64,000 bases of DNA, taken from positions 64,001-128,000 of IMG/VR virus record IMGVR_UViG_3300026549_000032, one strand, 5' to 3'. A program made the position numbers and the translations under genes. Below, in pieces: positions 4,138-46,602 of this stretch. The stretch is from a virus (lineage: Duplodnaviria; Caudoviricetes). Within the stretch, counting starts at the first letter, position 1. The number at the start of each line of letters is the position of its first letter. The notes beneath the pieces are model-generated. The model was not told the origin of the DNA, made no database searches, and was given only the letters and a program-made list of their open reading frames with translations.

Positions 4138-4388
4138 TTGAACGGTGGAAATGCACAGTTGCCTACTTCCTAGTATGCTTCTTCTTATTCATGCTAGTTT
4201 TTGTATGCGTCGCTCCTTTCTACCGAGAAAATCCATGCATTCCACGAGCATCTGGCATGATGGCCGTTATGTTTATGAGTATGTGGAAAGAACTTTGGTA
4301 CGATAAAAAGTACGGCGAGAAAGTAAAGAATTCTTGGGTCGGACTCCTCGGAGGTATGATCGGAGCTGCTTTCACGTTTATTCTCTAA
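4125..4388 (+). CDS. Small membrane protein
   Basis: Three hydrophobic segments; overlaps upstream stop. Confidence 0.6.
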   Translation: MLKIIERWKCTVAYFLVCFFLFMLVFVCVAPFYRENPCIPRASGMMAVMFMSMWKELWYDKKYGEKVKNSWVGLLGGMIGAAFTFIL

Positions 4389-4437
4389 AAATAAAAGACT
4401 CTCTAGGGCTTATTAAAGGCTCCAGGGAGTCCCTTTT

Positions 4438-4448
4438 TCTTACTAATG
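4438..4448 (+). promoter_or_regulatory. Putative phage promoter box TCTTACTAATG, 2 nt before ATG 4451
   Basis: Matches recurring (C/T)CTTA-N4-TG motif. Confidence 0.6.
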
Positions 4449-4450
4449 AT

Positions 4451-10072: not shown

Positions 10073-11137
10073 ATGAAAGAAGAAATGAACAATAAAAATC
10101 GATTAAAAATTATTTTTCGACCGTTTCTTCCTGAAACCAACTCCTCATCCTCACATTCCCTTGTTATTACACAAGGCACTCCCTACATTCTCCCAGGGAA
10201 TCCTCTCTGGGATGTTCCGACCGACCCATTGACCGCCAAACTCAAGATCGCCGGTTATGCATCATTCGGTCGTGGGGCTGGTGTGTATAACAGTGTCTAT
10301 TCAAAGATTCAGTATACCGCTGCTGCCTTGTGTTATTGGTCTAGGACAGAGAGAGCTTCGCATGAAGGTCTCCTCCGACTAGAAAGGATTATCAAGGATG
10401 TAACTGGTGTACCAGGGGTGACCTGGGAATGGATTCCTGATTATTATAAACGTCTCTTTACGGCCTATCAGGATCCTCGTGAGTTTATGAAGTACGGAGA
10501 GGAGGAAGAGTTTGGTTGGCCCGATGTGGACCATGAAGGAACGGATCGTTTTCCTGAAGTCTTAGAGTCAGATCAGACTATAGCCGACTTCATATTCTCC
10601 CCAACCTCAGTTCTCTATACTGGGGATGATGGTGGTTCGCCTTCTGTTCAATTCTTTGGAAGAACGGAACCTAAAGCTATTCTCCACGTAGAGATCCCTG
10701 AGCCCATCGGGCGTATAGATCTCCCTCTCTATAAATGGCCATGTAATGTGTTAAGTGAGATAGGAGACGTCTTGGGAAGAGGACCCTTGGATTCTGTGGT
10801 CTTTGAGAAAGGATCAACCCCTGGGGAATATATTGTCCGGGGGAAGGATGCCAGAGACCGCGAGCGTGTTCTCATAGATAATCCCTCGGGATCAGGTCCA
10901 AGAGTGGAACAAGATCAAGGGAGATTCTACTTTGCTGGGACAAACTATTTCAACCTCTTCAGGGATTTCCCGGCGGATGAGAAGCTGTACTGGTTTAGTC
11001 CGGCTCTCCCAGGTTATGTGGATGGGATTCGGAATGCTAATTATTCCCTCCCCGACGCTATGAAAGATCATCCCGACCTTTGGTTAGGTATCCCCTGGTC
11101 AGTAACAATCCTAGAACTTGGAGGAATCGAAGTATGA
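10073..11137 (+). CDS. Hypothetical protein with N-terminal ETNSSSSHS motif (radical SAM-associated)
   Basis: PETNSSSSHSLVI near N-terminus; ATGA overlap with radical SAM gene. Confidence 0.8.
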   Translation: MKEEMNNKNRLKIIFRPFLPETNSSSSHSLVITQGTPYILPGNPLWDVPTDPLTAKLKIAGYASFGRGAGVYNSVYSKIQYTAAALCYWSRTERASHEGLLRLERIIKDVTGVPGVTWEWIPDYYKRLFTAYQDPREFMKYGEEEEFGWPDVDHEGTDRFPEVLESDQTIADFIFSPTSVLYTGDDGGSPSVQFFGRTEPKAILHVEIPEPIGRIDLPLYKWPCNVLSEIGDVLGRGPLDSVVFEKGSTPGEYIVRGKDARDRERVLIDNPSGSGPRVEQDQGRFYFAGTNYFNLFRDFPADEKLYWFSPALPGYVDGIRNANYSLPDAMKDHPDLWLGIPWSVTILELGGIEV

Positions 11138-12147
11138 TGATGTTCACTAGAGAGTATTACCCAGGGACCTATATAAACGGAAACTATTATGTTACAGGAT
11201 CCCCGGAGAATGGAACAAGAGTTAAGAGGACTCTTAGGGTGGGTGAAGATTTTAAACCTGCCTTCCCAGATTCCATTGACTTGAAAATAACGTCTGCCTG
11301 TGGGTTTGGATGTCCTTTCTGCCATGAAAGTGCTACCCCGAACGGTAAGACGGCTGATCTTGAAAGACTAAAAGCATTCTTAGACCCTCTCCCCAGGGTT
11401 GGTATAGAGGTTGCTATTGGTGGGGGAGATATATTCTCCTGTCCAGAGTTTACCTATGACTTGGTTAAGTGGCTAGAGAAGGATAATGGTTTTCTACCCC
11501 GTCTCACTCTGTCCCATAGGAACTATGAGGAACTAAACGATACTGTCGTCGAAGGGATGCTTCAATATACTAAGTTCTCTGAGGATTCCGTTGAGAAGAA
11601 ATTAACCTATCTCTTGGAAGAAATTCCGGTGGGTGTTAGTCTTAATCAGTACTTAGAGAATCCTATTCCAGACAGAATAAGTGCATCCTCCTTCCGTTTG
11701 AGTAGTGAGAGAATAGTGTACCATGTCATTGCTGGAGTTATTAATCCGGAGGACCTATGGGAAATGTGGTTAGATAGAAGACACTATCGAAAGATTCTTG
11801 TCCTTGGGTTTAAACAATTTGGACGGGGCGCTTCTTATACCCTCCCAGACCTAGACAAGACGAAGGAAGTAGTGGAGAGGATTCTTGCTCGACAGAAAGG
11901 TCTATTCACTGGAGAAGTTAGAAAGGTTATTGCCTTTGATAACTTAGCCATTGAACAGCTCGGTATCAAGAGTCTCCTACCCAAAGAGGAATGGGACACG
12001 TTCTATCAGGGAGATGAATTTACAGCTTCCATGTATGTTGATGCCGTGGAAGAAACTGTTGCCCCTACCTCAAGGACCCCTAAGGAGGAGAGAACCTCAT
12101 GGAATCAGACAACCCTTTTAAAGTACTTCAATGAAAACCATCGCTAA
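11134..12147 (+). CDS. Radical SAM protein 1
   Basis: DLKITSACGFGCPFCHE (CxxxCxxC), EVAIGGGD, GFKQFGRG; start at ATG 11134. Confidence 0.9.
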   Translation: MMMFTREYYPGTYINGNYYVTGSPENGTRVKRTLRVGEDFKPAFPDSIDLKITSACGFGCPFCHESATPNGKTADLERLKAFLDPLPRVGIEVAIGGGDIFSCPEFTYDLVKWLEKDNGFLPRLTLSHRNYEELNDTVVEGMLQYTKFSEDSVEKKLTYLLEEIPVGVSLNQYLENPIPDRISASSFRLSSERIVYHVIAGVINPEDLWEMWLDRRHYRKILVLGFKQFGRGASYTLPDLDKTKEVVERILARQKGLFTGEVRKVIAFDNLAIEQLGIKSLLPKEEWDTFYQGDEFTASMYVDAVEETVAPTSRTPKEERTSWNQTTLLKYFNENHR

Positions 12148-12679
12148 AAAAGAAAAAGTATTTGCCTTGGCTGGTATAGATCCAACCTGGAGGTGGAAGA
12201 GATTAGAAGTTAATGAAGGTACGCGGAGACATTGGGGTTATCCCTACTGGATTACCGATCAGGGGACTCCTATCATCATAGATCCCTATCGGTGGATGGT
12301 TTTCTGGCCGAGCCAATACCCTGAGCCGGAGAACATAGATCCAGATCCCTATGAAGGTGTTGATTGGGGAAATTGGAAAATCACTCGCCTAAGTGAGGAG
12401 AAGCCTTACATACGAAATGAATATGCAAGAAGTACATGGAACTATAATGTACTGTATAAGACAGGCGTATACGAAGTCAAGGATACCAAGTGGGGAGACT
12501 CCTATGAGATACAACTTCTCTGCTGGGATGTTGAATATGAATTCCAAACATTCCTCAGGACACCCCTCAAAGTGAATTCAAACTTGGGATCTGAGACTAT
12601 TCGCCTGGAAGATGAATTTTACCTAGAAATATTTAAACATAATGGAGAAAGCTATAAAGTCGCTCATCTCAACTGTTAA
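12131..12679 (+). CDS. Hypothetical protein (Trp/Tyr-rich)
   Basis: Overlapping operonic ORF. Confidence 0.7.
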   Translation: MKTIAKKEKVFALAGIDPTWRWKRLEVNEGTRRHWGYPYWITDQGTPIIIDPYRWMVFWPSQYPEPENIDPDPYEGVDWGNWKITRLSEEKPYIRNEYARSTWNYNVLYKTGVYEVKDTKWGDSYEIQLLCWDVEYEFQTFLRTPLKVNSNLGSETIRLEDEFYLEIFKHNGESYKVAHLNC

Positions 12680-38291: not shown

Positions 38292-38529
38292 AATAACTTA
38301 TGCTATGTGGCGTGAGTATGCTAGGAAGATAACAGCCGTAACCCAGGACATAGAACAAAAGAAAACATCTGCCAGGACTAAAGAAGACTTTGCAGCTAAA
38401 GAGGCGTGGAGAGAAATCAAGCACCTCAAAGAAGTTCGTGTTTATTATGGGAAGAGGGCTAAAAAATATAAGAAAGATTTTAGATCCATGAATAGGGCCT
38501 ATTCGATGAAAAAGAAAGGAGAGAATTAA
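38260..38529 (+). CDS. Small basic protein
   Basis: Lys/Arg-rich. Confidence 0.6.
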   Translation: MEKDLEKLKLRITYAMWREYARKITAVTQDIEQKKTSARTKEDFAAKEAWREIKHLKEVRVYYGKRAKKYKKDFRSMNRAYSMKKKGEN

Positions 38530-38567
38530 CTCTCCCTCTTTTTTTTCGGAACCTCATTACAGAGGTG

Positions 38568-39153: not shown

Positions 39154-39627
39154 ATGATTAGTAACAAAATTGACGAATTAATTTCGGAAGCACGTAGTTC
39201 TAAGGATAGAGAACTACTGAAAGTATTAACCCTGATCAAGGCGGAACTTCAGAAAGCAAAGACCGCTAAGAACAGGAAAGCTACTGGTGAACTGACGGAG
39301 GTAGAAGAGGCAAAGACTCTCATCGCCATGGTAGAACAAAGAAAAGGTTCTATCGACGAATATATAAAGGGCAAGCGAGAGGACTTAGCACAGGCTGAAC
39401 AGAAAGAGATTGATATTATTCAGCCCTACATTCCAGAGCTTCCCACCGAAGAAGAACTTAAGGAGTATATTGCCGGAGCAATAACCGCCTACAAGACAAC
39501 GAAAGAGGATGGTTATGCACTAAGTATGAAGGATATGAAACCCTTGATTGAGATTGTTCAGGGTAAATATCCTACGGCTCCAGGTAAGTTAATCAGTAGT
39601 ACACTTCAAGGAATCCTAAGAGGATGA
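39154..39627 (+). CDS. GatB/YqeY domain protein
   Basis: L.LIKAEL...QRK.SI..Y...REDLA..E..EI.II..Y.P, MKDM. Confidence 0.85.
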   Translation: MISNKIDELISEARSSKDRELLKVLTLIKAELQKAKTAKNRKATGELTEVEEAKTLIAMVEQRKGSIDEYIKGKREDLAQAEQKEIDIIQPYIPELPTEEELKEYIAGAITAYKTTKEDGYALSMKDMKPLIEIVQGKYPTAPGKLISSTLQGILRG

Positions 39628-40172
39628 AACCGCTTATTGCTAATCAGTATTGCCCAGAGTTCCTAGAGAAATGGGAATCTCTTCGGGAATGGATTAACCA
39701 GACTCGTTCTAAGACTTGGCAAGGATTCTTCTTTGGCCTAGACTTAGTCGGAACGGTTGTGTTTGCCGTAATAAGTACGGTTGGTGTTTTTGGTGTTTTC
39801 GGAGAGCCCCTAAAGTGGTTTGGTATTCTCAATCTTCTGAGAGTGACAATAAGTCTCGTCATGATAGGAGTAGTATCAAGTCAGGTACTAGATCGAGGAC
39901 GAATACCTCTCGCACAAGGACCAAGCAACGTTACACAGGTCTTATATTGGATCCTGTATATGTCCTCTCATGCAGCACTTATCATGATTGCAGAGGGTGG
40001 TCTTTGGTCACAGATGACTATAGGGGCTAGGTGGCTTATCTTTGGATTATTCTTATCCAAGATTATCAACTTGAACCATACCAAAGACTTTGACCTACAG
40101 GGTGCTTTCATAGGAGCACCAAAGTTTCTCTTAAAGGATATTCCTGAGTGGATTAAGAGCCGAGTTTCATAA
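39624..40172 (+). CDS. Multi-pass membrane protein
   Basis: Four hydrophobic segments. Confidence 0.7.
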   Translation: MKPLIANQYCPEFLEKWESLREWINQTRSKTWQGFFFGLDLVGTVVFAVISTVGVFGVFGEPLKWFGILNLLRVTISLVMIGVVSSQVLDRGRIPLAQGPSNVTQVLYWILYMSSHAALIMIAEGGLWSQMTIGARWLIFGLFLSKIINLNHTKDFDLQGAFIGAPKFLLKDIPEWIKSRVS

Positions 40173-40209
40173 AGCTCGGTTTTTATTTTCGAACCCCTTA
40201 TTAACAGAT

Positions 40210-40557
40210 ATGAACGAAATAAAACTACACGAACTAGTAGCAAACGTATTTAGGGATTACCCATATAATGCGTGTTTATATATAGGAAAATATAGATTTA
40301 AGGCGGAAGGAGAGACAACTCCAGAGGTAGATGTATGTTTCCCATGGGAAGCGACTGACGTGGAGGATATTCCCTTCTCCGTCTATAGTAGAGGACCAAT
40401 TATCACTGGTAAACCAAAGGAGAGCATAGACAAGTTGCTTATGTTCTTCTTGGATGATAGTCCGACGAACTATTTCACAGTAGTTCATAGAGAGCCCGGC
40501 AAAGACTACTACATGTACATAGATAGACATTCAGATATATACGTAACAAAAGTATGA
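40210..40557 (+). CDS. Hypothetical protein
   Basis: First gene of the TNSS/radical SAM operon. Confidence 0.7.
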   Translation: MNEIKLHELVANVFRDYPYNACLYIGKYRFKAEGETTPEVDVCFPWEATDVEDIPFSVYSRGPIITGKPKESIDKLLMFFLDDSPTNYFTVVHREPGKDYYMYIDRHSDIYVTKV

Positions 40558-41123
40558 TCAAGGTTAAAAGTATAACTGACGTTATTACTAACTCAAGCAC
40601 AGAAGTATTTGTATTGAAATTAACAAGTAAAGAAGTTGAATGGCTTGAGAATAAAAGAATAACGTACGCCAGAGAAGCTCTGAAAGCTAACAAGGAAAAT
40701 AAAACTTGGATGAGAAGCTTGAGTGAGAAAGAGAGAAAAGAGTATACTTCCCTCGACTTTCTCCTTGAAGAGGTTGACGAATGTAAGGTTGTCTTAGCTC
40801 CCTGCTTCACTAGGGAAGGTCTCTTGTGGGGCTTGGGCAATAAAGAAGATAGAAAGAGATTCTGGGTTAATGATGACTGGGAGTATATCAGAAAAATTAT
40901 AGGCGGTAAAGCCATCGAAGAGACAGACGAGGATCCAGATTTTAGGTCATTTAATAAATGGTTGGCAAATAATATAGACTGGATCTCCGAGAAGATGAAG
41001 GATGTCTGGCTCATGGAAGTCTGTAACTATGACGAGAAAATCTATGAGAAGCTAGATCTCTATGCTCACATGGATAACCTACCCAAAGATGGTAAAGTTT
41101 TGTTTTATGAATGTAGGCATTAA
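40554..41123 (+). CDS. TNSS-motif protein 1
   Basis: MIKVKSITDVITNSSTEVFV. Confidence 0.8.
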   Translation: MIKVKSITDVITNSSTEVFVLKLTSKEVEWLENKRITYAREALKANKENKTWMRSLSEKERKEYTSLDFLLEEVDECKVVLAPCFTREGLLWGLGNKEDRKRFWVNDDWEYIRKIIGGKAIEETDEDPDFRSFNKWLANNIDWISEKMKDVWLMEVCNYDEKIYEKLDLYAHMDNLPKDGKVLFYECRH

Positions 41124-41526
41124 GAGTATCACCGACGTCATAACTAACTCAAGTACAGAAGTATTTGTAGTTAAGAAAAGAGGTAAACAAGTAGCTGAGA
41201 ATGGTTACTTCTCTGGAATAAACACACCACAATCTGTTAACTGGGAACCCAAGGAGATAACTTGGAAGTGGTTAAGGTCTAATCAAGGGAAGTCTGAATG
41301 GATGATGATATGTGACCTGGTTGACAAACCCTACACTGAGCTATCAACTTCTGGGGATGAACCTGATTGGGGTAGGTGGAACGACTGGGTTACTCTTCAC
41401 AAACATAGAATCCAAGATAGAGCTATTGGCTTATGGTTCCTAACAATCCGAGATGGCTTTGGTGGATTCTTAGACATGGTAAAGGATATAAAAGATTACA
41501 TTGTCTGGCATGAAAATAGGCATTAA
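41107..41526 (+). CDS. TNSS-motif protein 2
   Basis: MNVGIKSITDVITNSSTEVFV; start at ATG 41107. Confidence 0.8.
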   Translation: MNVGIKSITDVITNSSTEVFVVKKRGKQVAENGYFSGINTPQSVNWEPKEITWKWLRSNQGKSEWMMICDLVDKPYTELSTSGDEPDWGRWNDWVTLHKHRIQDRAIGLWFLTIRDGFGGFLDMVKDIKDYIVWHENRH

Positions 41527-41803
41527 GAGTAGGACAGATATAATAACCAATTCTAGTACGGAGGTTTATGAGATCATCATTAATGGATCTCCTAAGAGAG
41601 TTGAAGAGGTACTTCAAGGAATCTTAGACACCTTAGATTGGGTTGGACATGACACAGCTAGAGTGACCACTGAAGATAATGTTATAACTTTAACTGGTAT
41701 TGAAGACAACTCGATCCCATTCCCCTTGATAAACTTATTAGAGAAAGGAAAGTTTAAAGAGTGGTTTGATGAAATTAGTGAAATTAAAAATAGAAGAATA
41801 TGA
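41510..41803 (+). CDS. TNSS-motif protein 3
   Basis: MKIGIKSRTDIITNSSTEVYE; start at ATG 41510. Confidence 0.8.
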   Translation: MKIGIKSRTDIITNSSTEVYEIIINGSPKRVEEVLQGILDTLDWVGHDTARVTTEDNVITLTGIEDNSIPFPLINLLEKGKFKEWFDEISEIKNRRI

Positions 41804-42918
41804 AAAATTTTACAGGCTGGGGAACAAAGATTAGAAGAGACCTTAGCAAGAACTACTATGCCATATGGCAAAACTTAGTAACAACGCGTCTCGACCTGGG
41901 AGATGAGATTGCCCTAGAGCCGGAGAAGTCTGAGTTCATGGATGTTGGTATAACCTCCAGATGTAATGCATGTTGTCCGTTCTGCTATGTCAGTGCAAGC
42001 GATAAAGGTCTTGATTACAAGAATATTGCCAAGACATGGAAGAAATGGATGGCAACAATGCCCGCTGATAGACCAATAGATCCTAGTCTTCTCCCGGAGG
42101 ACGATCCATTGAAGGAGGTCTTTGATGACAAGCGAACTCCAAAAGAGCTGCTCATAGATATAGCAGAAATTGGAGCGGGTAAGAAAAAGACCAATGACGC
42201 TGGTGAAAACATGGACGACCTGGAGTTAATTCTCAAGATCAAATCCTTCACAGCCCTGGGACTTCCGCTGGTAGAAACATTTAGGCCTTATCAGGTGGCT
42301 TGTGGTTCGATTGGTGAGCCAACAATTCATCCAGAGTTTGTAGAATTCTTACAGGCTGTCTTTGAGACTGGTGTGGTTCCCAATTATACAACAAACGGAA
42401 TCGTACTCTCAGACTATAGGACACAAGAATGTAAGGACCTCCTAGAGGCAACTAAGCAGTTCTGTGGTGGTGTGGCAGTTAGCTTTGGTAATAAGAAACT
42501 TCACCCACATGCAAGAGTAGCTATAGAGAACTTAATTTTATACGGGGAATGCAAGGTGGTCATCCACCACATCATTAGTGACAAGGCTAGTGTGGACGAT
42601 ATGATTAGTCTTGCCAAGGAATATAAAGATCGACTCCACTACCACGTCCTGCTGCCACTTATGGCTCATGGTCGTAGTAAGGAAGGCCTCCAGGAAGGAG
42701 TCTTTGAGTATATGTATGAGAAATGTGAAGAGGAAGGAGTGACGAATTTGGCCTTTGGTGCTAACTTCGCTCCTCAATTGAAGGCACATCCAGACCTCTT
42801 CCCCGTCTATGAGTATCCTCAGGAGATCTATAGCAAGAATGTACTCCTGCAGGAGGATAAAGTAGTAATAACACCAAGTAGCTTTAATTTAAAGCCATGC
42901 AAGACGATAGAATTGTAG
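41800..42918 (+). CDS. Radical SAM protein 2
   Basis: DVGITSRCNACCPFCY (CxxxCxxC), GEPTIHPEF, PNYTTNG, VAVS. Confidence 0.9.
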   Translation: MKNFTGWGTKIRRDLSKNYYAIWQNLVTTRLDLGDEIALEPEKSEFMDVGITSRCNACCPFCYVSASDKGLDYKNIAKTWKKWMATMPADRPIDPSLLPEDDPLKEVFDDKRTPKELLIDIAEIGAGKKKTNDAGENMDDLELILKIKSFTALGLPLVETFRPYQVACGSIGEPTIHPEFVEFLQAVFETGVVPNYTTNGIVLSDYRTQECKDLLEATKQFCGGVAVSFGNKKLHPHARVAIENLILYGECKVVIHHIISDKASVDDMISLAKEYKDRLHYHVLLPLMAHGRSKEGLQEGVFEYMYEKCEEEGVTNLAFGANFAPQLKAHPDLFPVYEYPQEIYSKNVLLQEDKVVITPSSFNLKPCKTIEL

Positions 42919-43079
42919 ATTTTACAACATGCGCAGGAATCGTAGATTTTTATAGCTCCTGTCGTGCGCCAACGGAAAGAGAAAAACTCAAGAGGAGTCT
43001 CAAGATGGATAACGACACTTGGGAGATCTATGAAGCCTGGCTGGACAGTAAGAACGACGATTGGCTTATCTTGAGCTGA
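42897..43079 (+). CDS. Small hypothetical protein
   Basis: Fills the gap between flanking genes. Confidence 0.45.
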   Translation: MQDDRIVDFTTCAGIVDFYSSCRAPTEREKLKRSLKMDNDTWEIYEAWLDSKNDDWLILS

Positions 43080-43080
43080 G

Positions 43081-43890
43081 ATGTTTGGTCATACTAAACA
43101 ATTCAAACAGCTTACCGAAGAAAAGAAAGAAGAAAAACCTCCCATAAAACCTCTCCTAGAGGACCTACAGTTTATATCAGACTGTTACAGGGCGTTCTTT
43201 AAGATAGGGGTTAATGATTCTTGGAAGGTTGTATTCAGAGAATTCTTTAAGCAGGTTAAGTTTCACTTTGGTGATAGACGATTCTTGGTCGTTACTAGAT
43301 CAGACTTTGTTGATATGGCCGACAGACAAGGAATCCTAGTATTCAGTAGAGAAGAAGATAAAACTGAAAGAATGGGGACATTCAAGTCTAGGACCCTATT
43401 TAATTGTAGCCTAGGATTTGTCTATGATTTTATCAAGACCGTTCCTAGTGTGACATTAAAGGACGGTATAGAAGCTGGTAACCTTGTATTCCAAGTACAC
43501 CAAGGAGTCATAGAGAAAGGTGGTCGAAAATTAGTAACTACCATTCAACGTGAGAGTCCAGAAGAGATCACTGCCAGAGCAATTTTCAATGCTCTCTGGG
43601 GAATATTCACAGAACCTAAAAGGAGTGTAATAGGAACTCCCATCGAACTAGCTGCGACGAGTGTGGCATCTGGTTTTAGACCAGACTGTGATTATGTAAA
43701 GAGCAATGAAAGGCCGACAGGAGTTAGTAAGTATGTGGTGCCGGAGGACAATATCTTGGTTGGAAAAGGGAAGGACAACGAAAAAGAAATTAAGTTTACA
43801 CCAACACCGTTTGGATATATAATTTGGTTAAGTCCAGACGTAGATGGCGGAATAGTAGAGAAAGTAGGATGGTTATACTCAAGGGTATAA
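43081..43890 (+). CDS. Hypothetical protein
   Basis: 269 aa. Confidence 0.75.
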   Translation: MFGHTKQFKQLTEEKKEEKPPIKPLLEDLQFISDCYRAFFKIGVNDSWKVVFREFFKQVKFHFGDRRFLVVTRSDFVDMADRQGILVFSREEDKTERMGTFKSRTLFNCSLGFVYDFIKTVPSVTLKDGIEAGNLVFQVHQGVIEKGGRKLVTTIQRESPEEITARAIFNALWGIFTEPKRSVIGTPIELAATSVASGFRPDCDYVKSNERPTGVSKYVVPEDNILVGKGKDNEKEIKFTPTPFGYIIWLSPDVDGGIVEKVGWLYSRV

Positions 43891-43907
43891 TCCCTATTTT
43901 CTCTTTT

Positions 43908-43918
43908 CCTTATTCATG
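43908..43918 (+). promoter_or_regulatory. Putative promoter box CCTTATTCATG
   Basis: Recurring motif. Confidence 0.6.
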
Positions 43919-43947
43919 ATTAATATGAACAACAAACTTTTAAGACA

Positions 43948-46143
43948 ATGGAAGCAATAAGAAAATTACTACAAGAACAGTTTAAGAATCTCCTAGCAAC
44001 TGGACATTTATTCAGGTCTAATATTGAAGGAGACTTGTTGTGGGCGGGTTATCTGGAAGGATTCAACCAGGATCCAATCTGGCGAGCCGAGGATAGCTCA
44101 ATTCACAACTGTAACTATTGTAAAGGTTTTATTCGCCATTATGGACCGATCGTAGCTATCAATCAGAACTACGAGCTCATCTCGTTATTTGATATAGATG
44201 ACAACAAGATCCCTGACGAATATAAGAAGTCTATTAAGGATATGCGCGACCTGATTCGTGCACAGGGAAAGGTCAATGATATCTTCATCGAGTCGTTTGC
44301 TCACCTGGCTGATCCGCGTACCCCGTATGAAGAGAATCCGAAAGACAATCAGCCTACATATCGAATTGGCGTTGAACATAATATCAAGAGATACTTGGCT
44401 GAAGATATAGCTAGATGGCCAAACTCTGGCTTCAAGCTCAATCAGGTGGAGACGTATCGTCACTTCTACCTGGATCTGCCTCGTGAGTATGTCAACTTCA
44501 GTACTTCATCAATTCAAGAGATCATGTCTATTAAGAGAAGTACGAAGGATGCATTCAAGCGTATCTTGGACGAAGTTAGTCCTGATACTATGCAGCTAGT
44601 AATCGAGCTTGAGGAGCAGGGTAGCTTGCTTAATGCAGCTCAGTATATGCCCTCCTTGAAAAAGTGTTTAGAGGTAGCTGAGCAATACCAGAGCCTGACT
44701 GCCAAGCAGCGAGACAATTTCGCCTGGATTCAGAGCCTGGAGAACCGTGGTGCCATAATCAAGAATAGTAGTGCACTCGGAAAACTTCTTGAGGATCTGG
44801 CTGATGGTGAAACAAGTTTGGAGAAAGCTTGTGAGAGCTACAATTATATGGTAGATTCCGCAAACTATCGTAGAGCAACTGCTCCCGTCTCAAAGAGTGC
44901 CATCCTAAAGGCCCAGGAGTTCATTGAGAAGAATGGATTCGAAGAGTCCTTCATTCGTAGGTGTGCAACTATCGAGGATATCCAGGCCGACTTGGTGCTC
45001 TTCAGTAATCAGACGGAGACACAGACTAAGACGAAGGTGTCCATCTTCGATGGCCTGAAACCAACTACTGTGGCTAAGACGAACAACATGGCCAAAGGTT
45101 TCGATAAGCTAGAGAAGGTTCCCGTCGATGCCTTCATGACTGACTTCTTGCCGAGATGTGAGAGCGTGGAAGTTTACTTGGACAATATTCACAAGAATAA
45201 CTTCATGACCCTCCTCACCTCGAACAACAAGGACAGCAAGAGGATTTTCAAGTGGATGAACAACTTTAGCTGGTCCTATGTTGGTGGCAATGCAGGTAAG
45301 TCTATGATCAAGACGGCCGTTAAACAGGCTGGTGGTAATGTAGAAGCACCGTTCAGATTCTCCATCATGTGGAACGAAGATTGGCAGACGAATCCCGTTA
45401 CCGTGGACTTTGATGCCCATGCTATCGAGCCTAATGGAGTGGAGATATTCTACTCAACCCCCTACCGAAAGGATAGAGGAAATCAGATGACTCCATGCTC
45501 GGGACAGCTGGATATTGACATGATCAATCCTCCAAAGACTGGTGTTGAGAATATTTACTGGACAAACACCGCCCGACTGAAGGATGGTAAGTATGTACTG
45601 TTTATCAACAACTTTGGTGGTACAAACCGTGGATGTAAGGCAGAGATCTTCATTGATGGCGTGACCTATCAGTATCATGTCACTAAAGCCTTCAGGAACA
45701 AAGAGAATCAGACTATAGCAGAGGTTTGGATTAAGGATGGACATCTCCAGAAGATCGACCACTCTCAGTGGCTGGTCAAGGAGGAAACAAAGCAGGAAAC
45801 CGTATATGGCCTGGATACATGTCAGTTCCATCCCGTTAGCCTGGTTTGTGTAAGTCCTAATTATTGGCAGGGAGAGGGAGTCGGTAATAAGCACTACTTC
45901 TTCATGCTGAAGGGTGCTAAGGCTCCGGAGAAGATTCGTTCTATTTACAACGAATTCTTGATCCCAGAACTCTACAACTATCGAAAGGTGTTGGAAGTTC
46001 TCGGTAATCAGCTGAAGGTAGACTCTACACCTAACCAGCTGTCCGGTCTCGGCTTCAATGCTACCGTACGTGATGAAGTTGTACTCCGCTTAACAGGAGA
46101 CTTCGAAAATAATAAACAAAAACTCATTAAAGTAACATTCTAA
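43948..46143 (+). CDS. Large phage protein with HNCNYC motif and C-terminal YfaP/TerD-like domain
   Basis: HNCNYCKGFI; FSIMWN...DFDAH.IEP.G.EIFY...LDIDM...VENIYW. Confidence 0.7.
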   Translation: MEAIRKLLQEQFKNLLATGHLFRSNIEGDLLWAGYLEGFNQDPIWRAEDSSIHNCNYCKGFIRHYGPIVAINQNYELISLFDIDDNKIPDEYKKSIKDMRDLIRAQGKVNDIFIESFAHLADPRTPYEENPKDNQPTYRIGVEHNIKRYLAEDIARWPNSGFKLNQVETYRHFYLDLPREYVNFSTSSIQEIMSIKRSTKDAFKRILDEVSPDTMQLVIELEEQGSLLNAAQYMPSLKKCLEVAEQYQSLTAKQRDNFAWIQSLENRGAIIKNSSALGKLLEDLADGETSLEKACESYNYMVDSANYRRATAPVSKSAILKAQEFIEKNGFEESFIRRCATIEDIQADLVLFSNQTETQTKTKVSIFDGLKPTTVAKTNNMAKGFDKLEKVPVDAFMTDFLPRCESVEVYLDNIHKNNFMTLLTSNNKDSKRIFKWMNNFSWSYVGGNAGKSMIKTAVKQAGGNVEAPFRFSIMWNEDWQTNPVTVDFDAHAIEPNGVEIFYSTPYRKDRGNQMTPCSGQLDIDMINPPKTGVENIYWTNTARLKDGKYVLFINNFGGTNRGCKAEIFIDGVTYQYHVTKAFRNKENQTIAEVWIKDGHLQKIDHSQWLVKEETKQETVYGLDTCQFHPVSLVCVSPNYWQGEGVGNKHYFFMLKGAKAPEKIRSIYNEFLIPELYNYRKVLEVLGNQLKVDSTPNQLSGLGFNATVRDEVVLRLTGDFENNKQKLIKVTF

Positions 46144-46556
46144 TGTACAAAAAAGCAACACGACTGAAGCTCCGCTTCAATGTAGGTAACGGTCCCTTGA
46201 CTGTTGATCAGCTTTGGGACATCAACATGAATAGCCTGAAGAAGGTTGTAGAAGTAACTCACAAGCAGCTCAAGGAATTGTCTCAGGCCAATGATGATGA
46301 TGACCTCGCCTTCCTCGAGTCTGAAACTCCCGTCGAGAACAAGGAGTTGGATCTGGCTAAGCTCCGTTTCGAAATTGCCAAAGACGTCTATGTGACTCGC
46401 CGCGATGAGCGTACAGCTGCCAGCGAAGACGCTAAGAACGCCGCTGAGATCAAGCACTTAGAGGAAGTTTTGGCCCGTCGTAAAGAACAGGAATTGGAGA
46501 ACCTCAGCTCGGAGGAACTCGAGAAGAAGATTGCTGCTCTGCGAGAGAAGAAATAG
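46143..46556 (+). CDS. Coiled-coil phage protein, partner of upstream gene
   Basis: ATRLKLRF...G.LTVDQLWD; C-terminal LENLSSEELEKKI. Confidence 0.75.
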   Translation: MYKKATRLKLRFNVGNGPLTVDQLWDINMNSLKKVVEVTHKQLKELSQANDDDDLAFLESETPVENKELDLAKLRFEIAKDVYVTRRDERTAASEDAKNAAEIKHLEEVLARRKEQELENLSSEELEKKIAALREKK

Positions 46557-46571: not shown

Positions 46572-46602
46572 AACCCTAGAGAATTAACTCTAGAGTTTTC
46601 TT
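46572..46602. terminator. Bidirectional terminator
   Basis: CTAGAG-AATTAA-CTCTAG flanked by A and T tracts between convergent genes. Confidence 0.6.

Follow-up and report, generated by a model that had tools for sequence, protein, structure and literature searches.

A phage radical SAM enzyme and a conserved N-terminal tag on variable proteins form part of a widespread, unnamed enzyme-tag system

The window analysed here is a stretch of 64,000 nucleotides (bases 64001–128000) from the 218,381-bp Caudoviricetes record IMGVR_UViG_3300026549_000032, whose completeness is put at 60% by CheckV. Three overlapping genes in this window run into a gene for a radical S-adenosylmethionine (SAM) enzyme, and the three proteins that they encode, here called clients, begin with a common tag. 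Their N-termini read MIKVKSITDVITNSSTEVFV for gene 1, MNVGIKSITDVITNSSTEVFV for gene 2 and MKIGIKSRTDIITNSSTEVYE for gene 3, and the tags fit the pattern KS[IR]TD[VI]ITNSSTEV[FY]; past the N-termini, the clients align with one another at just 23–34% identity. The three client genes are translationally coupled and lead into the radical SAM gene, the stop of gene 3 and the start of the enzyme gene (41800) overlapping as ATGA. An upstream gene of 115 amino acids (aa) also overlaps client gene 1 by ATGA. An earlier note on this DNA had described three overlapping, strongly diverging motif-bearing genes of 189, 139 and 97 aa, the last joined to the radical SAM gene by ATGA, and both parts of that description are borne out by the open reading frames (ORFs). 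The lengths of 139 and 97 aa assume ATG starts at 41107 and 41510; the longest ORF forms are 154 and 100 aa. The genes and their principal features, in window coordinates, are as follows.

40554–41123, + strand: tagged client protein 1, 189 aa; tag K5–F19 at 40566–40610; C-terminus ...YECRH
41107–41526, + strand: tagged client protein 2, 139 aa; tag K6–F20 at 41122–41166; C-terminus ...HENRH
41510–41803, + strand: tagged client protein 3, 97 aa; tag K6–Y20 at 41525–41569
41800–42918, + strand: radical SAM enzyme, 372 aa; MoaA/NifB/PqqE/SkfB-like core without the auxiliary-cluster cysteine set
41875–41901, + strand: conserved N-terminal strand of the enzyme, residues 26–34; predicted docking strand for the tag
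41962–41985, + strand: CxxxCxxC cluster motif of the enzyme (C55, C59 and C62), invariant in 18 homologues
42097–42279, + strand: helical insertion of the enzyme, about residues 100–160; present in long enzyme forms only

A six-frame scan of the 218-kb record identified 11 ORFs of 97–286 aa that carry the strict motif, in every case 6–11 residues from the start codon. Only one gene for an enzyme of this family is present in the record. The eight further tagged genes, which the earlier note had not reported, bring the number of tag clusters to four, with the following genome coordinates.

104554–105803: the three window genes
137577–139547: tag cluster
169077–170694: tag cluster
192942–194868: tag cluster

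We took advantage of these copies to ask at which level the tag is conserved. Ten residues are invariant in the 11 copies, and their codons show 64, 64 and 348 pairwise differences of 550 at positions 1, 2 and 3, respectively, in agreement with the earlier claim that the motif DNA varies mostly at third positions. Every change at position 1 or 2 in these residues is a switch of serine codons between AGY and TCN. Synonymous sites in the tag are saturated; therefore the peptide is the conserved item, recent gene conversion is not the cause of its uniformity, and selection on the tag acts at the peptide level.

The same tag defines a large family. A profile built from 19 tagged proteins matched 1644 clusters (50% identity) at E ≤ 0.001; in each case, the match begins at residue 1–11 of a protein of 49–257 aa. 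The consensus from 149 representatives is [IM]-K-[IV]-[QK]-S-[IV]-[ST]-D-[VI]-I-T-N-S-S-[ST]-E-[VT]-F, in which N, S and S do not vary, at least 96% conservation is seen for T, E, I, D and the upstream S, and F is conserved in 92%. The tagged proteins are acidic, with a median isoelectric point (pI) of 4.56 and 92% of 365 sequences below 5.5. Orthologues of the 139-aa client are present in related phages. No Pfam, PHROG, NCBIfam or PADLOC family matched the clients, and a feature search of the ESM Atlas returned only unnamed viral clusters. Some of the eight clients encoded outside the window (L006, L007 and L008) share an internal S-G-M-G-G-E plus D-x-D segment, and an internal GMGG is present in 41 of 150 tag-family representatives. 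One protein, P0346 (400 aa), carries two tags, at its N-terminus and near residue 250, and resembles two tandem tagged genes fused in-frame.

Linkage between the tag and the enzyme, a check proposed in the earlier note, was examined in both directions, and it holds across 20 enzyme lineages (clusters at 80% identity). The enzyme profile retrieved 80 IMG/VR loci; in 78 of these, one to five tagged ORFs lie no more than 3.5 kb upstream on the same strand, and no tagged ORF is present elsewhere within ±10 kb. Starting from the tag profile, the enzyme was found no more than 3.5 kb downstream in 48 of 50 loci, a set biased by its tblastn confirmation step. An unbiased scan was made with a degenerate DNA pattern for D-[IV]-I-T-N-S-S-S/T-E-V-F, and it yielded 108 loci, with the tag at an ORF start in 104; where at least 4.5 kb of downstream sequence was available, the enzyme lay within 6 kb in 27 of 38 loci. 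Six out of six tag-bearing records that are at least 93% complete also encode the enzyme: in four complete records every tag is beside the enzyme, and two more (93% and 100% complete) have both. We conclude that the tag is never without the enzyme in any near-complete genome examined, and that strict adjacency has been lost in the very-large-phage lineage that contains the window. The concern that motif proteins might occur mostly without an enzyme neighbour is thus not upheld for the scanned loci, but it retains some force here, where eight of the 11 tagged genes are not adjacent to the enzyme.

No other neighbour shares this behaviour. Among the eleven other genes around the module, none recurs beside the enzyme in 85 related loci, save a 60-aa gene that overlaps the 3' end of the enzyme gene and has a match in two of them; the conserved unit is for this reason the enzyme plus the tagged genes. 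The 60-aa gene is conserved only in the closest relatives, and its membership of the module is therefore doubtful.

42897–43079, + strand: 60-aa gene overlapping the 3' end of the enzyme gene

The variant P0324 (245 aa; contigs up to 96 kb) was considered as a designed fusion of the tag to an ADP-ribosylglycohydrolase (ARH) and rejected: by eye, it is a natural variant of an L001-type phage in which a deletion joins a 104-aa client to the C-terminal part of the downstream ARH gene. Such a deletion would take out the radical SAM gene, a 101-aa gene and one more tagged gene; provided that the contigs are correct, the phage in question can do without the module.

The enzyme itself belongs to the radical SAM superfamily by its CxxxCxxC motif, by the G-E-P-T SAM motif that is conserved in the family and by its partial TIM-barrel core. 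C55, C59 and C62 are the only cysteines invariant in 18 homologues, and the protein ends in ...ITPSSFNLKPCKTIEL, so that the earlier description of an ITPSSF C-terminus with no SPASM/twitch cysteines is confirmed. The insertion of about 70 aa noted at the same time measures about 60–70 aa (~100–160) and is absent from enzyme forms of 306–312 aa. Within the N-terminal strand, L26, T28 and R30 are invariant in the family. The window enzyme scores 23.2 against PF04055, under the cut-off of 29.5, and many of its homologues carry the match; its library hits comprise just sub-threshold generic radical SAM and viperin matches, with none to the SPASM families PF13186 and TIGR04085, both of which are found in the cellular cousins described below. 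The enzyme family has no Pfam, PHROG or NCBIfam family of its own. At least 713 relatives (E ≤ 0.001) are present in a word-indexed protein collection, nearly all of them unnamed and many on contigs of 100–430 kb. A single-sequence query retrieved no related loci, and a profile was required. In cultured phages (INPHARED), we found no blastn match to 40200–43000 and no tblastn match to the enzyme.

An AlphaFold2 (AF2) model of the enzyme was predicted with a mean local distance difference test score (pLDDT) of 92.9. The nearest solved structure is SkfB (Z 20.7, root-mean-square deviation (rmsd) 3.2, 257 residues aligned), with SuiB close behind (Z 19.4, rmsd 3.3, 270 aligned), at sequence identities of 14–16%. 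Both alignments begin at residue 6–8 and hence cover the N-terminal sheet. No library match to a PqqD-like/RRE family was obtained, but the three-stranded N-terminal sheet does align with the N-terminal domains of SuiB and SkfB. Further structural matches include viperins (around Z 17), GDGT-MAS, BlsE, DesII, the anaerobic sulfatase-maturating enzyme (anSME, Z 15.9), ChlB, MoaA, EpeE and PqqE; the core fold also resembles that of the pyruvate formate-lyase activating enzyme (PFL-AE, Z 13.6), and many solved radical SAM enzymes match at Z 13–21.

Two further features of the enzyme gene were observed. Residues 354–359 (window 42859–42876) read I-T-P-S-S-F, with T358 and S361 invariant, and resemble the tag core I-T-N-S-S-x-x-x-F; this segment could be a chance likeness or an internal pseudo-substrate. 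In addition, the gene is split near G-E-P-T by 0.5–1.6 kb in several relatives (L089 at 10424–12574, L119, L129, L135, L248, G007, G017 and G022). The insert in L089 encodes a GIY-YIG-type homing endonuclease of 319 aa. Rfam at its gathering score identified no group I intron at the break in the enzyme gene; L089 carries a group I intron (RF00028, 57 bits) at 4171–4450, some 6 kb 5' of the radical SAM module on that contig.

The AF2 model of the 139-aa client, made with 15 orthologues (pLDDT 85.7, predicted TM-score 0.79), shows a beta-alpha-beta/beta-alpha-beta domain from residue 15. Residues 1–14 have pLDDT < 50 and are predicted to be a free tail that contains the best-conserved part of the tag, through I-T-N, and S-T-E-V-F-V-V forms predicted strand 1 of the fold. 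We read the domain as a generic ferredoxin-like arrangement and no more: no significant solved relative was found (best E 0.036 with Foldseek, best Z 5.9 with VIA), and structure matches in the Atlas are confined to unnamed viral clusters and weak PII/ACT-like rows. The clients are confident folded domains of 97–286 aa rather than short leader-core precursors.

This model bears on the question, raised in the earlier note, of whether the motif is merely the first strand of a shared fold. The motif could be a structural element, such as a first or oligomerisation strand, of an old and fast-evolving family that is syntenic with a functionally unrelated enzyme; E-V-F-V-V is indeed strand 1 in the model, and subsets of the family share additional motifs, namely a C-terminal E-x-R-H and the internal GMGG (41/150). 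The suggestion may hold for this part of the motif. However, the residues with the strongest conservation (S, D, I, T, N, S and S) fall outside the fold, at pLDDT < 50, the families are not detectably homologous beyond the tag, and synteny holds over 20 enzyme lineages and into cellular cassettes whose genes otherwise differ. We regard a purely structural origin of the motif as very improbable.

Modelling of the enzyme together with the 139-aa client, another check that had been proposed, placed only tag residues 1–13 on the enzyme, and all confident client contacts come from these residues. The interface scores (ipSAE) of this complex were 0.63, 0.63 and 0.64, and the best control reached 0.00; the mark applied to this score was reached by 58 of 80 solved complexes and by 2 of 110 mismatched pairs, counts that hold only approximately because we used alignments of our own. 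The partners had pLDDT values of 71 or higher, and no less than 44% of contacts agree between runs. The tightest pairs in the model join client residues 4–10 to enzyme residues 27–33, as a strand added to the N-terminal sheet of the enzyme. Insertion residues 103, 106–107, 136, 139–140 and 143–144 are predicted to touch the tag, as are barrel residues Q165, A167, N195, T197, A226, Y281 and 337–340 (including Y339 and P340), nearly all of which are invariant in the family. The predicted interface is as expected for a peptide substrate and supports binding, and the insertion may provide the second wall of a tag-binding groove.

We next consider cellular relatives of the pair. A scan of 185,579 species genomes gave three close enzyme matches, on metagenome-assembled genome (MAG) contigs that also bear three to four tagged ORFs and are probably binned phage DNA, together with 14 distant enzyme relatives, most of them at a hidden Markov model (HMM) E of about 1e-25 and the weakest at 4e-16. 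A plasmid search added Agrobacterium tumefaciens pAt (NZ_CP011248.1), making 15 distant relatives. These enzymes retain the SPASM domain, and in 15 of 15 the gene directly upstream encodes a protein of 132–133 aa that starts MK[IV]K[LFI]DF[VI][ST]NSSSTSFVYI. The cellular cassette consists, in order, of a protein of about 885 aa, a protein of 125 aa, the tagged protein of 133 aa and the radical SAM/SPASM enzyme; the ~885-aa protein in pAt has a SMEK_N domain and a weak NACHT match. We found no publication on this four-gene cassette. Comparison of phage and cellular clients with hhalign aligned the tag only, as D-V-I-T-N-S-S-S-E-V-F with D-F-V-S-N-S-S-S-T-S-F (E 6e-4 and 1.4e-3, at a low probability because the stretch is short), and the core common to both is D-h-h-[ST]-N-S-S-[ST]-x-x-F. 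Enzyme and tag therefore co-vary between two otherwise unrelated genomic settings. Of all the evidence, this speaks most strongly for a joint function of the two, and it also counts against a tag role confined to the virion.

Such a role deserves consideration given the properties of the tagged proteins. The tag might be a sorting or processing signal that is read by something else, with only an indirect link to the enzyme, for instance a capsid-targeting sequence with an S-x-E prohead-protease site, as in the T4 internal and phiKZ inner-body proteins, or a site of Asn-Ser autoprocessing. A conserved N-terminus of about 15 aa on otherwise unrelated, acidic (median pI 4.56), multi-copy phage proteins recalls the T4 capsid-targeting sequences, S-T-E and S-S-E match an S/A/G-x-E site, and tag copies are dispersed in the genome. 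A T4-type prohead protease (PF03420) had no match in the 60%-complete record, and control genomes gave none either. Against a signal of this kind, bacteria and archaea carry the same tag core in SMEK/NACHT cassettes that are not viral, without exception next to the related enzyme; the enzyme is the sole conserved neighbour across phages; and the complex model is specific to the tag. We consider it improbable that the tag is read chiefly by something other than the enzyme.

Taken together, the anatomy of the locus, selection on the peptide, two-way linkage, the related cellular pair and the predicted tag-enzyme interface make it moderately probable, in our judgement, that the tag is the substrate of the co-transcribed enzyme, with the three window proteins and the products of the eight other tagged genes as its clients. 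The earlier note had put forward the motif as a recognition or modification tag on variable client proteins, and every test that we ran agrees. Catalysis on the tag, the modified site, the chemistry and the biological role we infer as follows. Each client would be a small, mostly acidic, variable folded domain behind a flexible tag, K-S-x-T-D-[VI]-I-T-N-S-S-[ST]-E-V-F. The N-terminal strand of the enzyme (residues 26–34) would bind the first half of the tag in the form of an additional beta-strand, held in long enzyme forms by the helical insertion as well, and the invariant T-N-S-S would thereby be brought to the mouth of the barrel, above the [4Fe-4S]/SAM site. There, a 5'-deoxyadenosyl radical would take a hydrogen from a T-N-S-S residue and leave a covalent change. 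Because the enzyme is without auxiliary clusters, we favour a relay-free change: epimerisation, or oxidation or cleavage at Asn/Ser that gives a reactive group. The mark might then activate, stabilise or direct the differing client domains.

Several observations weigh against modification of the tag by this enzyme. Eight of the 11 tagged genes lie 30–90 kb from it, and 11 of the 38 tag loci from the pattern scan have no enzyme within 6 kb; these exceptions sit in records of about 150–360 kb, like the dispersed clusters of the present genome. Enzyme and tags are about 100 kb apart in one 305-kb record (L009), and eight tag-bearing records, all 37–74% complete, have no strong enzyme match. Conservation of the tag may be partly structural, given that S-T-E-V-F-V-V is predicted to form strand 1. 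In the complex model, whose score is the model's own confidence, confident contacts end at T13 and so do not place the invariant N-S-S in the active site. Most protein- and peptide-modifying relatives have auxiliary clusters that are missing from this enzyme, and no invariant cysteine is available as a hydrogen donor.

The linkage and interface data also fit with tagged proteins that are interchangeable partner or adaptor subunits and not substrates. Docking of the tag would then complete the active site of the enzyme or gate it, and each variable domain would bring another target (a small molecule, a nucleic acid or a host protein) to one catalyst. The invariant polar residues of the tag (D, T, N, S, S and E) might form the lining of a site, the clients are folded domains and not short peptides, and in the KpAvs2 operon the protein Avap2 binds the STAND protein rather than being a shown substrate (PMC11564622). 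On the other hand, up to 11 adaptors per enzyme, most of them encoded far away, would be unusual; no binding or enzymatic fold is recognisable in the client domains (best solved Z 5.9); and in the closest solved relatives of the enzyme, a peptide strand is the substrate. We therefore regard an adaptor role for the clients as unlikely, albeit the most serious competitor to a substrate role.

The enzyme-tag pair recurs in many large phages and in defence-type gene cassettes of bacteria, and it therefore probably represents a system, not described so far, for the chemical marking of whole proteins. The finding in the window is a non-random part of a widespread, unnamed enzyme-tag system. Both phage families are confined to uncultured large phages, and a SPASM-bearing sister pair is present in STAND-type cassettes of many bacterial and archaeal phyla. 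To our knowledge, radical SAM enzymes that modify whole proteins are few, comprising anSME, the glycyl-radical activases, QhpD and a handful more. Each has revealed new chemistry. The present system offers a concrete putative substrate, a peptide of 15–20 residues with an invariant T-N-S-S, so that the function of the enzyme is directly testable. The presence of 11 clients in one genome suggests that phage accessory proteins are generally switched by the mark; a switch of this kind would function only in anaerobic gut conditions.

A bolder and distinctly tentative extension is that the N-S-S tag and its enzyme are a pair of ancient origin that marks proteins for phage and host alike in their conflict. 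In cells, the pair would serve the SMEK/NACHT STAND cassette; giant phages would have captured it, lost SPASM and spread the tag over changing acidic effectors, 11 of them in the present genome. The mark would arm these effectors, or the effectors would act as decoys for the tagged partner of the host. If true, this would amount to a new post-translational modification of an Asn-Ser-Ser segment in whole proteins.

The module is embedded in a single, tightly packed string of genes on the + strand (about 39154–46556), flanked by terminator-like hairpins at 38518–38535 and 46576–46593. The ORF list and family libraries identified no STAND (Avs2-like) NTPase gene in this operon. At its 5' end (39154–40172) are a gene for a YqeY-like protein (PF09424, E 8e-22) and one for a 182-aa protein that by eye resembles a multi-pass membrane protein, neither of which is kept beside the enzyme in other phages. 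Downstream, in the same string, 43948–46143 codes for a protein of 731 aa assigned to PHROG 1735 (E 1.9e-180, function unknown); it, too, shows no linkage with the enzyme elsewhere among phages. A second, unrelated radical-SAM-like gene of 355 aa is located at 11080–12147 on the + strand, with a PF04055 match (E 1.1e-5) below the cut-off; ORFs of 328 aa in several large tag-bearing records match it weakly and may be orthologues.

We found no description of this enzyme-tag system in the literature, and searches with the tag string gave unrelated matches only. The only published and tested compact radical SAM enzyme with a small partner beside a STAND anti-phage NTPase that we found is the pair in the KpAvs2 operon, in which Avap1 is a radical SAM protein of unknown chemistry and Avap2 (DUF6375) binds Avs2 (Bechon et al. 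2024, PMC11564622). Kinship of the clients with DUF6375/Avap2 was considered but gained no support: HMMER matched PF19902 neither to the genome nor to 19 phage clients nor to the tagged proteins from cells. These searches carry little weight, as the family was matched nowhere, including four cellular genomes and a sample of 400 genomes from one class. Radical SAM modification of peptides has been predicted in other STAND/vWA conflict systems, not with this tag (Kaur et al. 2020, PMC7159879).

The nearest cellular homologues of the enzyme, those of the SMEK/NACHT cassette (38% identity over residues 129–269 by tblastn), share with the phage module the tag core and a tagged gene directly upstream of the enzyme. 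They differ in that the cellular cassette keeps SPASM, a single tagged family and a STAND NTPase, whereas the phage module lacks a STAND gene, its client domains are several and unrelated, and a longer segment precedes the tag. T4 internal proteins carry a short conserved N-terminal capsid-targeting peptide on hypervariable, multi-copy phage proteins; unlike the present tag, which also occurs in cellular cassettes, these have no enzyme partner of such a kind. Nor does the tag consensus contain a conserved glycine, in contrast to the RVxG motif of glycyl-radical clients.

SkfB (PDB 6efn) and SuiB with SuiA (PDB 5v1t), radical SAM peptide maturases whose N-terminal domain binds the substrate, resemble the phage enzyme across nearly the whole chain (Z 20.7 and 18.5–19.4, respectively), bind their substrates as an extended strand and are encoded next to their substrate genes. 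The phage system departs from them in having no SPASM/twitch cysteines and no PqqD/RRE family match, and its clients are folded proteins of 97–286 aa that are conserved at the extreme N-terminus and numerous in a single genome. In anSME and AtsB, one radical SAM enzyme modifies a short Ser-containing motif near the N-terminus of several whole-protein clients. The anSME system uses two auxiliary clusters in a SPASM domain and the motif C/S-x-P-x-R, and the phage system has neither, that motif being absent from the tag consensus and a sulfatase domain from the clients. In its working mode, the phage system is nevertheless closest to anSME with its sulfatases (PDB 4k38, Z 15.9), as one enzyme that would act on a short N-terminal segment of many different proteins.

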